Shown piece after piece: positions 6,405 through 52,519 of a stretch of DNA of 55,465 bases. Position 1 is the first letter of the stretch; each line of letters begins with the position of its first letter. Below the pieces are notes generated by a model. The model saw only the letters and a program-made list of their open reading frames with translations, did not search any database and had not been told where the DNA came from. Made by a program: the position numbers and the translations under genes. Source of the DNA: a virus (lineage: Duplodnaviria; Caudoviricetes); the IMG/VR virus record IMGVR_UViG_3300022827_000009, positions 1-55,465 of that record. One strand, written 5' to 3'.

Positions 6405-6480
6405 CCCTCTCTAACTCAATTGGCAGAGTGGTTGACCGTTTACGGTTAACTGGTTCGTGGTTCAAGTCCACGGAGAGGGA
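6405..6480 (+). tRNA. tRNA-like gene (Asn/Lys-like body) with a non-canonical anticodon arm
   Basis: Acceptor CCCTCTC/GAGAGGG; D arm ACTC-AATTGGCA-GAGT; T arm CGTGG-TTCAAGT-CCACG. The anticodon arm GTTGACCGTTTACGGTTAAC is 20 nt instead of 17. No encoded CCA. Confidence 0.75.
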
Positions 6481-6518
6481 CGTCATCGATTTAAATAAAT
6501 TCGTGTAGTATTTTAAGC

Positions 6519-15955: not shown

Positions 15956-16663
15956 TTGAGCGAGCTGGACGCCCCTATTACTAAAGCAATTCTGTACGCA
16001 CGCGTATCTACAATGATACAAGTAGAGGATGGTGTGTCGCTGGATGTGCAAGAGAGAACCCTTGTGCAGGCTAGGGAGATGTACGGATTCTCCGAAGGTG
16101 AGTTGGTCCGCGAAGAGGGCCGCTCCGGTAAGAACGTTACCGGCAGGCCCAAACTAATAGACGCCCTTAAGCGTCTAGACCGTGGCGAGGCAGACGCCCT
16201 TATTGTGACCAGGATAGATAGACTGGCCAGGAGTACAAAGGACTTCTTGGACATAGTGGATAGGGCCAACAAGAATGAGTGGAGGCTGATCCTCCTTGAT
16301 CTAAACCTAGACACCTCTACATACCAAGGAAGATTTGTCGTCACAATAATGAGCGCCTTGGCCGAGATGGAACGTGGAATTATTGCAGAGCGCTCAAAGG
16401 ATATCCATAAAGATCGCAGAGATAGAGGTATCGTCTGGGGCGAAGATATGGGACCGAAGATGTTTATCCCACCGCAGGTAAGGGAGCAAGTTTTGACTCA
16501 TAGGGGCAGGGGAATGTCTTATCAGGCAATAGCCGACACGCTGAATATTCAGGGGTTAGTTGCTTCTAGGGGTGGAACTTGGTATGGTTCAAGTGTGAAG
16601 AATGTAATAGACGCACTTACGAAAAATGAAAAGGGACTCAATGGCGAGAAAAAAGAAGCTTAG
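15956..16663 (+). CDS. Serine recombinase (resolvase catalytic domain plus short C-terminal DNA-binding domain)
   Basis: YARVST, SGK...RP.L, RIDRLARS and AEMERGII.ER motifs. Confidence 0.9.
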   Translation: MSELDAPITKAILYARVSTMIQVEDGVSLDVQERTLVQAREMYGFSEGELVREEGRSGKNVTGRPKLIDALKRLDRGEADALIVTRIDRLARSTKDFLDIVDRANKNEWRLILLDLNLDTSTYQGRFVVTIMSALAEMERGIIAERSKDIHKDRRDRGIVWGEDMGPKMFIPPQVREQVLTHRGRGMSYQAIADTLNIQGLVASRGGTWYGSSVKNVIDALTKNEKGLNGEKKEA

Positions 16664-17585: not shown

Positions 17586-18896
17586 TTGTCAGATACCTCA
17601 GAGTCACAGACCACCTCAAATAAGGTAAGGACCTTTGTTTTAGACACATCTGTTCTCCTCTCTGACCCAAAGGCAATCTTTCGCTTTGCGGAACACGAAG
17701 TTGTTCTGCCCATCGTTGTGATTAATGAGCTTGAGAAAAAGCGAAACGATGGCGAGATAGGTTATCTTTCACGTAAAGCGCTTCGACTACTAGACGACCT
17801 CAGAGATGAGCACGGAAGACTGGACTTCCCTATCCCAGTTGGAGACGGTGGAACTCTACGCGTTGAGCTCGGAAACATTGAGCCTGGCATCCTTCCCGCA
17901 GGTTTTCAATTAGGAGACAATGACTCGCGGATCTTGGCCGTAGCGGCGAATCTTAAGAGCGTAGGGTATGACGTAACCTTAGTCTCCAAAGATCTTCCGA
18001 TGCGAGTAAAAGCTGCATCAATTGGACTAAATGCTGAGCAGTACCTGCACGAGCTTGCCAACGAAGAGTGGCACGGTATCTCAGAGATTGCCGTCTCTGG
18101 CGCAGACATAACTAATCTCTACGACAATGGTGAACTAGCACATGAATCCATCAAGGGTATGCCCGTCAATACTGGACTAGTACTATCTTCAGAATCTGGT
18201 GGTGCACTAGGTCGAGTCACAGACAGTGGGACCATTCGTCTAGTCAAGGGTGATCGAGAAGTCTTCGGACTACATGGACGCTCTGCTGAGCAGCGACTTG
18301 CTATCGATTCGTTGTTGGATCCGGGTATGGGTATCGTCTCGCTCGGTGGAAAAGCCGGAACCGGAAAGAGCGCCTTGGCTCTATGCGCTGGGCTCGAAGC
18401 GGTCCTTGAAAGGAAAGAGCACAAGAAGATTATGGTGTTCCGACCATTGCATGCAGTTGGCGGTCAAGAGCTTGGATACCTCCCTGGAACCGAAGCCGAG
18501 AAAATGAATCCGTGGGCGCAGGCCGTTTTCGACACGCTTGGATCGCTGGTCTCTAAAGAGGTAATTGAAGAGGTCATAGCTCGTGGCATTCTTGAAGTCC
18601 TACCACTAACTCACATTCGTGGGCGCTCACTCCACGACACCTTTGTAATCGTAGATGAAGCTCAGTCGCTAGAGAAGAATGTATTGCTGACTGTTCTATC
18701 TCGTATCGGTCAAAAGTCTAGAGTGATCCTGACGCACGACGTAGCTCAGAGGGATAACCTCCGAGTGGGCCGTCATGATGGAGTCGCCTCAGTTGTTGAG
18801 AGACTAAAGGGTCAATCGATATTTAGCCACATTACTTTGATGCGCTCCGAGCGAAGCGAGATTGCTGCGCTAGTTACTGACCTTCTAGATTACTAG
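17586..18896 (+). CDS. phoH: PIN-PhoH fusion (PhoH2)
   Basis: N-terminal PIN (VLDTSVL, NDSRIL, SKD..MR), Walker [13 protein letters not shown] and VDEAQ; TTG start with AAAGGAG RBS. Confidence 0.93.
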
Positions 18897-29921: not shown

Positions 29922-30026
29922 ATGGGAGACTTTATGAGAGAACTATTTGGAAGTGCTTGGCCGTACTATTTGGCATTTGCTGGACTTTTGGTATGGTGGG
30001 TTGGAGCCAACCTCTGGCGCAAATAA
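29922..30026 (+). CDS. 34-aa single-TM microprotein
   Basis: MGDFMRELFGSAWPYYLAFAGLLVWWVGANLWRK; TAATG coupling to the next gene. Confidence 0.6.
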   Translation: MGDFMRELFGSAWPYYLAFAGLLVWWVGANLWRK

Positions 30027-38354: not shown

Positions 38355-38576
38355 TTACCGCGGATGTAGATGTTCGAGTTTGGCCTTGGCTGCCTCGTGA
38401 GAGTAACGAATCATTCCAGGATACATGAATCGTCTGAGATCGCGATAATAGTTCTCGTGCCAATGTTTGGGATGCATGTGAACGCACCACTCTCTGGCCG
38501 CAACGCAGTTTCTATTGCGTATAACTTTGGCGTCACTTTCCAAGAAATACCTAAAGTAGAGGGTTAGCCTTCTCAT
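38355..38576 (-). CDS. Hypothetical small basic protein
   Basis: Minus-strand TGATAAACT-N6-ATG leaderless start. Confidence 0.5.
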   Translation of the reverse strand: MRRLTLYFRYFLESDAKVIRNRNCVAAREWCVHMHPKHWHENYYRDLRRFMYPGMIRYSHEAAKAKLEHLHPR

Positions 38577-38706
38577 TAAAAAAGTTTATCATCGTTTGGT
38601 GCTTGGTGAGTTTGATGTGTGCTACTATTATGGGCTCTCGAATGGCAGGTAAAAGAATAACAGAAAAAGTGGCAATTTGTGCACCATGTATGTGTATAAT
38701 ATAACT

Positions 38707-38818
38707 GCTGCAAGGTTTTTCGTTCTCCCTTGTAGCTTTTGTTGATTGGTAGAACTGCTTAGCATGGGCAGTAAACGGTCCGAGGGTTTTTTCGTAATTT
38801 CCCCTCGGGCCGTTTTTT
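38707..38818 (+). ncRNA. Candidate three-hairpin small RNA with two anti-RBS loops
   Basis: TGTGTATAAT -10 at 38691-38700. Hairpins at 38707-38736, 38754-38772 and 38773-38815 plus a T tract. Loops TTTTTCGTTCTC and TTTTTTCGTAATTTC. No ORF. Confidence 0.65.
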
Positions 38819-38865
38819 ATCTTTGGTGGTTGACACGATTAGATTAAAACAGTAGTGTTCTATCT

Positions 38866-39336
38866 ATGATAAAAAACAGAGAAGAATATAACGAGTACAT
38901 GCGAAGCTATATGCGTGGCTACTCTAAGGAAAGAAGACTAGAGCATAGAACAAAGATCATGGCTCTACTGGGAAACGTATGTGCTTGTGGCTCCACGACT
39001 AATCTGGGCATGAGTCCTGGAGATGATGCGGACGTTAACTTTGACATCTCGAAGAAACTTTCAAGCGCCCCTCTTAGCAAGCTGATGGTACAAAGTAAAA
39101 CCTACCGTATTAGATGTGGGAAGTGCCGAGCTAAAGACTTCGGTGTTGAGCACGGTGGTGGAGCCTCTGGTAAGAGGAACTGCATCTGTGAACCTTGTAA
39201 AGCTCGTAAGGCAGAATACATGATAGCTAGAGGAATTAAATACAGAGCTGTACGAGACGCTAAACGAAAAAGCGATAGACTACTAAAGCAAAATGAATCG
39301 AATAAATCGAATGAATCGAAAGGAGAGAACAAATGA
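38866..39336 (+). CDS. Degenerate HNH-like protein, paralog of 19982..20392
   Basis: LG.VC.CGSTTNL, CGKC and HG...CICEPC; catalytic DH absent. Promoter TTGACA-N17-TAGTGT-N7-ATG. Confidence 0.6.
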   Translation: MIKNREEYNEYMRSYMRGYSKERRLEHRTKIMALLGNVCACGSTTNLGMSPGDDADVNFDISKKLSSAPLSKLMVQSKTYRIRCGKCRAKDFGVEHGGGASGKRNCICEPCKARKAEYMIARGIKYRAVRDAKRKSDRLLKQNESNKSNESKGENK

Positions 39337-47502: not shown

Positions 47503-47685
47503 ATGATAAAAGAATTCGTAAGCTGCGAACACAACCCGAAGCAGACAGTTACTGACGGGATCTATATCTGCACCTACTGCTTCAGGCAATTGCGACCTTG
47601 CGGCAGCTGCTACACAATTGAGCTGACCAACAACAGGACCAACTACGGCTGCTTCGACTGCGCTCCAGAAATGATGGTCGACTAG
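47503..47685 (+). CDS. Small Zn-finger protein (early-type)
   Basis: AAAGGGAGA RBS; CEH...CTYC...CGSC...CFDC. Confidence 0.65.
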   Translation: MIKEFVSCEHNPKQTVTDGIYICTYCFRQLRPCGSCYTIELTNNRTNYGCFDCAPEMMVD

Positions 47686-49399: not shown

Positions 49400-49681
49400 A
49401 TGACAAAAAGGATTTACTGGGCAGACATCATAGTTTGCGAGGACCAACTGTTTGAAAACCTAGACGCATTAGTTGCCGTAGCAACTGAAACACCAGTGGT
49501 TTTTCTAGGTTCGTGGCACACAGACAACATTCTCGTTAGCGCCGAAATCAGAGATGGTTTAGAGCTAACTTGGACAGAGCTTGACTGTGACGAAAACGAC
49601 AACGACATACGAGTTCTCAAAATTGAGTCTTTCACCTACAGCGTTTCTACAGAGATGGCAGTTCTAGTAGGGAGCGACTAA
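49400..49681 (+). CDS. Small acidic early-type protein
   Basis: TGCTACTGT -10; AAAGGAGA RBS. Confidence 0.7.
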   Translation: MTKRIYWADIIVCEDQLFENLDALVAVATETPVVFLGSWHTDNILVSAEIRDGLELTWTELDCDENDNDIRVLKIESFTYSVSTEMAVLVGSD

Positions 49682-50635: not shown

Positions 50636-51274
50636 ATGACTTCATTAGCAGTAACAGCAGTAGCACCTAAGATTATTGGCAAGGCAGTCTACCTAGAGTT
50701 GGTAGTAAACCCTGCACTCACTCCCGACCAGCAGAGAACTGTTTGCGGTTGGCATGGGGCAGCAAGTAGCACGAAACAGATGATTATCTTTCCTCAGTAT
50801 CAGGACGATACTGGCAAAATTATGCAGTCAGTTGTAATGACCAGAACTGTCTCAGAACACTCGCCTAGAGCGCAGTGGGATACCAGCTACACCAGAGGCT
50901 TCGCCAAGTTGGACGAACCAGACATGGAAGTCGTTAGTGGACACCACTCGGACTACACAAATGTAGAGCATTACTCGAAAGAGGAATTTGACGAGCTTCC
51001 AATACTCCAACAAGTAGCGTCCAGACAGCGCACTTTGGCGCTAACTTTGAAGCGTGAACTACTCGGCACAGCTTATGGCGAAGTCATAAAAGATGAGCCT
51101 GAGAGTTCCGTAGTCCAAGCTTGGGTAGTTCGTGACGATACTCCACTTGCCGTTGAGATTACCAACGAGGACATGGCACTTTTGCATGACGAAAGCAAGA
51201 CACCTCAAGCAGTTATTCGCCGAATAAATAAAGTTCGTGAATCAGTCTTGACATTTCCAAACAAACTGGCATAA
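50636..51274 (+). CDS. Hypothetical early-type protein
   Basis: TTGACA at 50559; AAAGGGG RBS. Confidence 0.75.
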   Translation: MTSLAVTAVAPKIIGKAVYLELVVNPALTPDQQRTVCGWHGAASSTKQMIIFPQYQDDTGKIMQSVVMTRTVSEHSPRAQWDTSYTRGFAKLDEPDMEVVSGHHSDYTNVEHYSKEEFDELPILQQVASRQRTLALTLKRELLGTAYGEVIKDEPESSVVQAWVVRDDTPLAVEITNEDMALLHDESKTPQAVIRRINKVRESVLTFPNKLA

Positions 51275-51320
51275 TTAGACCAGACACAAAACGACACGAA
51301 AACTAAAGGGAGACACGAAA

Positions 51321-52391
51321 ATGTATCTAAAAAAGAGTATTTATCTAGCACCAGCACCAACGCTCAGTAGCACCTTGGACTTTGACAAGCTTATGACAGA
51401 GCTATCGTCCACAGTAGCACTACCAACTTTGGGCGTGACTACCTCGGTTCTTGATACCCTAATGCGACCAGAGGGCAGGGCAACACTTCGCTCGAAGGCA
51501 GGGGCAAAAGCAGTCAAGCCACTTGGGATAGACTTGGGAGCAGAAACCCCAAGCCTTGCGGAGACAGTTGAGATAATGGAAACCACAGAATCGCTCGAAG
51601 GCTCGGAGAGTTATCCTCGACCAAATGGTGAGGACTACTATGCTCGACCTTGGGGCGAACACACAGATGTTGAAGTCCTAAGAAAAGCCAGAGCCGAAGG
51701 TCATGCCATTTTACTTTATGGAGTCCCAGGAACAGGCAAGACAGCTTTAGTTGAAGCTGCTTTTCCAGAGGAACTTTATACCATTCTTGGCTCAGGCGAT
51801 ACTGAGGTTGCCGATTTGGTCGGTGGCTATGTCCAGACTCAGAGCGGTGGCTTTGAGTGGGTGGACGGAGTTTTGACCAGAGCTGCTTCTGAGGGCAAGG
51901 CACTTCTGATTGACGAAATTGGGTTGATTGACCCGAAGGTAATGTCAGTTGTTTATGGGCTAATGGACGGAAGGCGTGAGCTAGTCGTAACTCAGAATCC
52001 AGAGCGTGGCACTATCAAGGCTAAAGAGGGCTTCTATGTCGTTTCAGCCACGAATCCAAATGTCGCAGGTGTTCGTCTGAGTGAGGCGCTTCTATCGAGG
52101 TTCGCTATTCATGCCGAAATGACCACAGATTGGGCGCTTGCTAAAAAGCTTGGCGTTCCACAGAGTGCCGTAGTTGCTTCTCAGAATCTATCCAAAAAGG
52201 TAGAGAATGGAGAGACTTCATGGTCACCACAATTCCGAGAGCTTCTAGCTTTCCGAGACTTGGCAAAGAGTTTTGGAACTAAGTGGGCAGTTCAGAATCT
52301 ACTTGCCAGCGCACCAGAAATTGACAGACCAGTTGCCTCAGATGTATTTGGTCGAGTATTCGGCGAAGCGATAATGCCAGCCAAGATTTAG
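51321..52391 (+). CDS. MoxR/CbbQ-type AAA+ ATPase
   Basis: GVPGTGKT, LIDEI, ATNP and LSEALLSRF motifs. Confidence 0.9.
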   Translation: MYLKKSIYLAPAPTLSSTLDFDKLMTELSSTVALPTLGVTTSVLDTLMRPEGRATLRSKAGAKAVKPLGIDLGAETPSLAETVEIMETTESLEGSESYPRPNGEDYYARPWGEHTDVEVLRKARAEGHAILLYGVPGTGKTALVEAAFPEELYTILGSGDTEVADLVGGYVQTQSGGFEWVDGVLTRAASEGKALLIDEIGLIDPKVMSVVYGLMDGRRELVVTQNPERGTIKAKEGFYVVSATNPNVAGVRLSEALLSRFAIHAEMTTDWALAKKLGVPQSAVVASQNLSKKVENGETSWSPQFRELLAFRDLAKSFGTKWAVQNLLASAPEIDRPVASDVFGRVFGEAIMPAKI

Positions 52392-52519
52392 TTGAGTATT
52401 CGTGTCCTCGACTAATGGGGAGTGTCAGGAAAGTTTTTCTGAAATGGACTTGACACTCCTACCCATTAGGGTGCATAATTAGACACAGCACAGAAACGCC
52501 GACAAAAGGGAGATTCAAA

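Follow-up and report, generated by a model that had tools for sequence, protein, structure and literature searches.

The DNA analysed here (the window) is an IMG/VR virus record of 55,465 bp with an estimated completeness of 34%. The locus described is a hairpin unit that sits within a 289-bp gap (38577-38865) separating two divergent genes. The left-hand neighbour is a 73-aa gene on the minus strand (38355-38591) with a start of the leaderless type, in which TGATAAACT stands 6 nt 5' of the ATG; its population variants fall mostly at third codon positions of the minus-strand frame. Inside this gene, at 38369-38451, population variants have an 81-bp segment of equal length and diverged sequence. 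Also on the left side is a leftward 471-aa lysin-like gene (PG_binding_1; phrog endolysin). The right-hand neighbour, on the plus strand at 38866-39336, encodes a 156-aa HNH-endonuclease-like protein that matched phrog_4234 (E 3.4e-6) and no Pfam family. The ATG of the HNH-like gene at 38866 has no Shine-Dalgarno (SD) sequence, and TTGACA-17 nt-TAGTGT (38830-38858, plus strand) ends 7 nt 5' of it; this is likely the gene's own promoter, from which a leaderless mRNA would be made. In two HNH homologues (L002, 2979-2994; L005, 28-42), TAGACT stands 7 and 6 nt ahead of the start, respectively. Since a -10-like hexamer is found 6-7 nt 5' of the start in all three genes, the HNH-like gene needs no read-through from the hairpin unit. 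Each of the two neighbours looks leaderless and seems to have its own promoter; the hairpin unit between them appears to stand alone.

Leaderless-type starts (TAnnnT 6-7 nt 5' and no SD) were seen at the HNH-like gene (38853-38866), at its two homologues, and at the 73-aa gene (38576-38591, minus strand), which fits an actinobacterial host. The large subunit of the phage ribonucleotide reductase has 74-80% identity to Actinomycetota proteins. The PhoH/RecA-like ATPase (17586-18896, plus strand) has 81% identity to a chromosomal gene (locus L094) located ~471 kb along the largest contig of an Aquiluna MAG, and ~45% identity to proteins of large Arthrobacter phages. These similarities may point to the host or to a recent exchange of genes, and an actinobacterial host is therefore likely. 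Distant HNH-like homologues adjoin tRNA-like sequences upstream (L007:1-100, L008:~250-350, and L012:~2900-2950); a location directly 3' of tRNAs is typical for free-standing homing-endonuclease genes in phage tRNA clusters. Elsewhere in the window, ARAGORN called a tRNA at 6405-6481 (plus strand) of undetermined identity, with the four-base anticodon 'ttta' in an 8-nt loop; this could be an unusual tRNA of the suppressor or frameshift type or a mis-call.

On the plus strand, 38707-38815 folds as three hairpins with a minimum free energy of -46.6 kcal/mol (z -5.72; 0 of 200 shuffles were as stable). Hairpin 1 (38707-38736, -11.7 kcal/mol) has a 9-bp stem and a 12-nt U-rich loop (38716-38727) and is followed by a single-stranded linker (38737-38753), the most variable part of the unit. 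Hairpin 2 (38754-38772, -7.0 kcal/mol) has an 8-bp stem, including two U.G pairs, and a 3-nt loop. Hairpin 3 (38773-38815, with the T run extending to 38818; -24.1 kcal/mol) resembles an intrinsic terminator. Its 14-bp stem, which is the inverted repeat I1, encloses a 15-nt loop (38787-38801), and a T6 run (38813-38818) starts inside the stem and overlaps it by its last three pairs. Hairpin 3 accordingly has the G+C-rich stem followed by a U run that defines an intrinsic (Rho-independent) terminator, and the T run lies 3' of the stem on the plus strand only. It was not called by the terminator scan, the rule of which takes loops of 3-8 nt. Loops 1 and 3 are related and have GG-T5/6-CGT...TC-CC in common, the RNA of the loops reading UUUUU(U)CGU. 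An earlier note on this DNA, made from the letters alone, had described three hairpins ending in a terminator and related large loops in the first and third, and both observations were reproduced. The unit is also strand-specific in its fold. Of the 31 base pairs, 4 in the window are G.U and would be A.C mismatches on the minus strand, and because of these four pairs the plus strand is ~10 kcal/mol more stable than the minus strand, which folds at -36.5 kcal/mol with interrupted stems and with the stem of hairpin 2 down to 5 pairs. A 10-nt direct repeat (38700-09 and 38750-59) was considered as a switch and discarded, about one such repeat being expected by chance in 289 nt according to our estimate.

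Upstream of the hairpins, the perfect -10 hexamer TATAAT (38695-38700), of the sigma-70 type, forms TATAATA with the next A (38695-38701, plus strand) and lies 6 nt from hairpin 1. The window is poor in TATAAT, with 10 copies found against 24.1 +/- 5.0 expected from shuffles, which suggests selection against stray -10 elements; its position ahead of hairpin 1 is therefore unlikely to be accidental. The -10 element proposed earlier was confirmed to this extent, but TGTGTATAAT does not form a canonical extended -10. Its TG is shifted by one base, for which reason TGNTATAAT is matched 0 times in the window. On reading, no sigma-70 -35 hexamer was found at 16-18 nt, and the promoter scan called no promoter. 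A conserved upstream block (38641-38694, plus strand) has an A-rich tract 5' of the -10, at the position of a putative UP-like element. The hexamer is TATAAT in the window, TATACT in a related contig described below, and TATGAT in a further variant, as deduced from the protein variant L23S; all three keep TAnnnT. Symmetric TATAATA, in which the -7T and -11A positions of the two strands coincide, is reported in one account of bidirectional promoters (PMC10268837), and by analogy the core may also fire leftward. There is no upstream gene on the plus strand, and a plus-strand transcript would therefore have to start in 38577-38706.

A cis-acting role of the hairpins as leader or attenuator of a rightward operon was considered at this point. 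In this reading, hairpin 3 would end transcription as long as no factor is bound to the two related loops, which agrees with the order of promoter, hairpins, terminator, and gene on one strand and with the location of one of the two similar loops within the terminator itself. It agrees poorly with the start of the HNH-like gene: as the gene has no SD and its own promoter 7 nt upstream, an arrangement shared with the TAGACT of L002 and L005, read-through RNA would have an internal start without SD. No Rfam leader family was matched at E <= 10 either, and we consider a leader highly improbable.

The only close relative found is L004, a 1,905-bp metagenome contig with an HNH-like protein of 85% aa identity. 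The whole unit is kept in L004 and is predicted to adopt an unchanged structure (z -5.22). The window and L004 can each form all 31 pairs; in L004, one G-C pair of hairpin 1 is changed to G.U (giving five G.U pairs), and 0 of 31 pairs show a compensatory change, in a comparison of two distinct DNA sequences only. Positions 38650-38698 are identical. Across 38650-38865, there are 8 differences in 216 nt, compared with 33 in 425 nt of the adjacent HNH-like gene (Fisher p 0.059) and with 14 in 141 third codon positions of that gene (p 0.023). Hairpin 3 is identical in L004 except for the T run, which is T5C. Two further haplotypes were seen at the protein level in the gene calls of a 15-member DUF6065 cluster. 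Variable sites of the linker are 38739, 38751, and, as deduced from the protein variant S5L, 38752. All 7 known variable sites are tolerable under the RNA model (-10 positions 4 and 5, one wobble-preserving stem change, three linker sites, and one site in loop 2), and loops 1 and 3 (27 nt) have 0 variable sites in all variants seen. The phage was present in 24 sequencing runs, all of DNA. Four variant-rich runs among these were examined; the three that cover 38664-38851 (X19, X21, and X23) show 0 differences there, and run X24 has no cover over this interval.

L004 carries ~970 extra bases (L004:166-1138) between the 73-aa gene and the conserved block, which encode a DUF6065 protein (PF19541; E 7.6e-44). 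Contigs from 3 of 4 examined runs break at 38633/38634, with loose ends like those of L004. The ~970-bp DUF6065 segment is a presence/absence polymorphism, the junction of which is the left edge of the conserved block.

The discrete unit claimed earlier was upheld in silico as a highly structured, plus-strand-specific stretch that runs from a -10 element to a terminator and is kept in one relative, but the description of it as ORF-less was wrong, as three ORFs overlap it. Two are on the minus strand, namely, a 45-aa ORF with an ATG start (38628-38765), which is antisense to hairpins 1 and 2 and to the -10 element, and a 45-aa ORF with a TTG start (38576-38713), which lies behind a minus-strand AAGGGAGA box; the third is a 33-aa ORF on the plus strand (38746-38847). 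The TTG ORF was rejected as a true use of the AAGGGAGA box, as its spacing is 10 nt versus 4-7 nt at real genes and L004 has a stop at codon 5, and the plus-strand ORF is frameshifted in L004. The frame of the ATG ORF is open in L004, where it continues in frame into the DUF6065 gene, and in every variant seen.

It may accordingly be asked whether the locus encodes a 45-aa peptide (38765 to 38628) that serves in L004-type variants as an N-terminal extension of the DUF6065 protein, the hairpins being incidental or secondary. Of the five substitutions between the window and L004, four are synonymous in this frame (simulated P(>=4) 0.008-0.02, uncorrected for frame choice), and the extension was called in 7 of the 15 DUF6065 cluster members, always in frame; the other 8 calls start downstream of it. 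On the 255-aa form, the DUF6065 profile (positions 11-232 of its 236) begins near an internal Met; this and the later starts count against the peptide. The ORF is on the same strand as the adjoining leftward block that contains the lysin, and the peptide has a hydrophobic stretch with basic residues on both sides. Against these points, the ATG at 38765 has, by reading, neither an SD nor a -10 hexamer at leaderless distance; the window and L004 versions have different C-termini; the protein variants include three non-synonymous changes at two codons, residue 23 being L, V, or S; and no homologue was found among proteins of 24-79 aa, with longer matches only within one DUF6065 cluster. Open frames of 45 codons are common by chance, and a purely coding explanation would leave the fold with z -5.7, the G.U pairs that exist on the plus strand only, and the antisense terminator all as coincidence. 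We regard minus-strand coding as unlikely.

Both signals could also be real if the plus-strand RNA were a cis-antisense regulator of the 5' part of the leftward mRNA (the 45-aa ORF or the DUF6065 extension), for which P22 sar and lambda OOP are precedents. Such a regulator would reconcile the RNA signals with the synonymous-substitution signal, and it would be consistent with the divergent arrangement of the genes and with the symmetric TATAATA core. However, neither the scan nor reading gave a promoter pointing leftward on the right side of the hairpins, and a leftward RNA from the symmetric -10 would begin to the left of the hairpins and not overlap them. This combination is, in our estimate, very unlikely. 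For structured units that seem ORF-less, a check for antisense coding constraint is advisable.

Searches for a family, copies, or relatives of the unit were run at several levels. Rfam gave 0 matches at the gathering score for the whole window and 0 at E <= 10 for 38560-38880. A covariance model of the unit (R1) found no second copy in the window and nine loci (91,837 bases), and searches with it of 5 genomes and of 151 genomes from the family to which an Aquiluna genome belongs were likewise negative. Arthrobacter phage Racecar matched the model twice, each time at E 0.21, and was rejected, as the fold there is only a terminator-like hairpin; the two matches are probably copies in the two terminal repeats of that phage. 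In IMG/VR, the exact loop patterns had 0 matches, and the lysin-like, 504-aa, and DUF6065 proteins had 0 relatives; the HNH-like protein had relatives of only 34-43% identity there, with unrelated upstream regions, and 0 relatives among genome contigs. The metagenome search with the HNH-like protein yielded one useful locus, L004.

The earlier note had gone further and proposed that the loops are antisense to ribosome-binding sites (RBSs) of the phage's own early genes, putatively those at 47-55 kb, which would be shut off later in infection. Under this proposal, a trans-acting RNA pairs through loops 1 and 3 with the SD and spacer of AAGGGAGA-led phage genes, the MoxR-like gene among them, and represses translation in the manner of P1 c4 or 6C RNA. 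Several of the underlying observations hold. AAGGGAGA is enriched, with exactly 7 copies in the window versus 2.6 expected; five copies lie 4-7 nt 5' of the starts at 47503, 48380, 51321, 52520, and 55196 and serve as RBSs, and one is the reverse complement of loop 1. As had been noted for loop 3, AGGGGAA is present ahead of 50636, and loop 1 does match the MoxR-like site with the exception of one bulge. The invariance of both loops is a further point in favour.

Pairing energies were computed for 92 initiation regions (-30 to +6) with 300 composition-matched shuffles per query. Loop 1 alone paired best at 49681 (-10.2 kcal/mol) and loop 3 alone at 16626 (-9.3 kcal/mol), and 96% and 93% of the shuffles, respectively, were as good or better. 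With flanking stem bases included, loop 1 paired best at 51321, the start of the MoxR-like gene (-20.1 kcal/mol; 21% of shuffles as good or better), and loop 3 at 29957 (-14.8 kcal/mol; 98%), which leaves loop 3 without a good site. By Watson-Crick identity score, the closest complement of loop 1 and its stem bases within the window is the initiation region of the MoxR-like AAA+ gene (51306-51323, plus strand), with 26 versus 20 for the next best. Of 200 shuffled queries, 6% did equally well for loop 1 and 97.5% for loop 3. In a ranking by pairing of non-self sites over the whole window, the MoxR-like site is 7th for extended loop 1, behind six sites inside genes. Among neighbouring targets, the 5' ends of the two flanking mRNAs (HNH-like and 73-aa) and the initiation region of the lysin gene also pair no better than shuffles.

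The MoxR-like match requires stem bases of hairpin 1 in addition to its loop. Of each anti-SD stretch assigned earlier to the loops, about half, namely the CCTT or CCC part, is locked in a stem. In the leaders of 48380, 50636, and 55196, ACGAAA lies 5' of GGGAGA, which is opposite to the order needed for a continuous duplex with the loop. The suggested likeness to the C-rich loops of 6C RNA fails on composition, as the loops are U-rich, with C at 3 of 12 positions in loop 1 and 2 of 15 in loop 3. The MoxR-like initiation region is the best in-window target candidate and is not distinguishable from chance, in a target search that covers the window, i.e., 34% of the phage genome. Pairing no better than that of shuffled U/C-rich loops is the outcome that the earlier note itself had named as contradicting its mechanism, and we give repression through these RBSs only a low probability. 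Loops rich in U and C always look antisense to SD boxes, and a shuffle test is required before such a match is interpreted.

The MoxR-like AAA+ gene and a 613-aa gene are both preceded by a near-consensus promoter of the form TTGACA-16/18 nt-CATAATTAGAC (51248-51280 and 52450-52484, plus strand). Both promoters are followed by an A/C-rich leader that contains ACGAAA-like boxes and a AAAGGGAGA RBS. The candidate small RNA and the MoxR-like gene both have host-type promoter elements.

From the fold, the strand bias, and the conservation, all of which were established in silico, we infer that the unit is transcribed and functional. The preferred model is a self-contained ~110-nt phage small RNA gene at 38707 to ~38818 (plus strand), an orphan, and we judge this model to have roughly an even chance of being correct. 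Host RNA polymerase would start ~7 nt past TATAAT without a -35 element, possibly in both directions. The transcript would fold at once into the three predicted hairpins and end at hairpin 3 and its U run, where the terminator would also shield the promoter of the HNH-like gene. The working parts would most likely be the two related, invariant U-rich loops, which would contact either RNA with ACGAAAAA-like purine-rich single strands or a protein. A more specific role of the loops as twin seeds or a decoy acting on phage leaders with ACGAAA and GGGAGA, on host mRNAs, or on a host protein is decidedly unlikely. A bolder variant of this unlikely reading is a dual-coded locus, in which the RNA would be antisense to a short leftward ORF, itself joined to the DUF6065 gene in sister phages.

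Four kinds of known systems were compared with the candidate unit. In T4-type phages, promoter/stem-loop cassettes (PeSL) border mobile gene cassettes and occur as many repeats per genome. The candidate unit is similar in that its promoter and stem-loops adjoin the HNH-like gene and the edge of a presence/absence segment; as a repeated cassette it was rejected, the covariance model having found no second copy in the 55-kb window. Divergent transcripts from symmetric -10 elements are a second case, and the candidate unit also has TATAATA with reciprocal -7T and -11A. The divergent RNA of bidirectional promoters is described in the account cited above as often non-coding (PMC10268837). By-product RNAs of this kind need no elaborate fold, whereas the candidate unit has three stable hairpins and invariant loops.

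For the proposed mode of action, the closest known analogue would be the c4 RNA of P1/P7, which a published description presents as a phage small RNA that has complementary sequences thought to lie in loops and that blocks translation by pairing around the RBS (PMC12197685). c4 acts on ant mRNA through a complementarity that is experimentally established, whereas the RBS complementarity of the candidate unit is not above chance: its best site for a loop specific to a phage RBS is the MoxR-like one, equalled by 21% (energy) and 6% (identity) of shuffles, and loop 3 is without a site. The candidate unit also differs from c4 in having no Rfam family match at E <= 10, the c4 covariance model included, and no nearby target was found. 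The actinobacterial 6C small RNA of high-GC Gram-positive bacteria is described as binding mRNA targets through C-rich hairpin loops (PMC6486639). The candidate unit is like it as a small RNA with hairpin loops and a probably actinobacterial host, and unlike it in having U-rich loops, no Rfam match, and no homologue in the 151 Aquiluna-family genomes; neither the covariance model nor the C-rich loops of the 6C family were found in it. No description of a regulatory RNA from actinobacteria phages was found in a literature search that was not aimed at this question. To our knowledge, actinobacteria lack Hfq. If verified, a small RNA with twin conserved loops would be an entry into RNA-based control in actinobacteria phages and their Hfq-less hosts.
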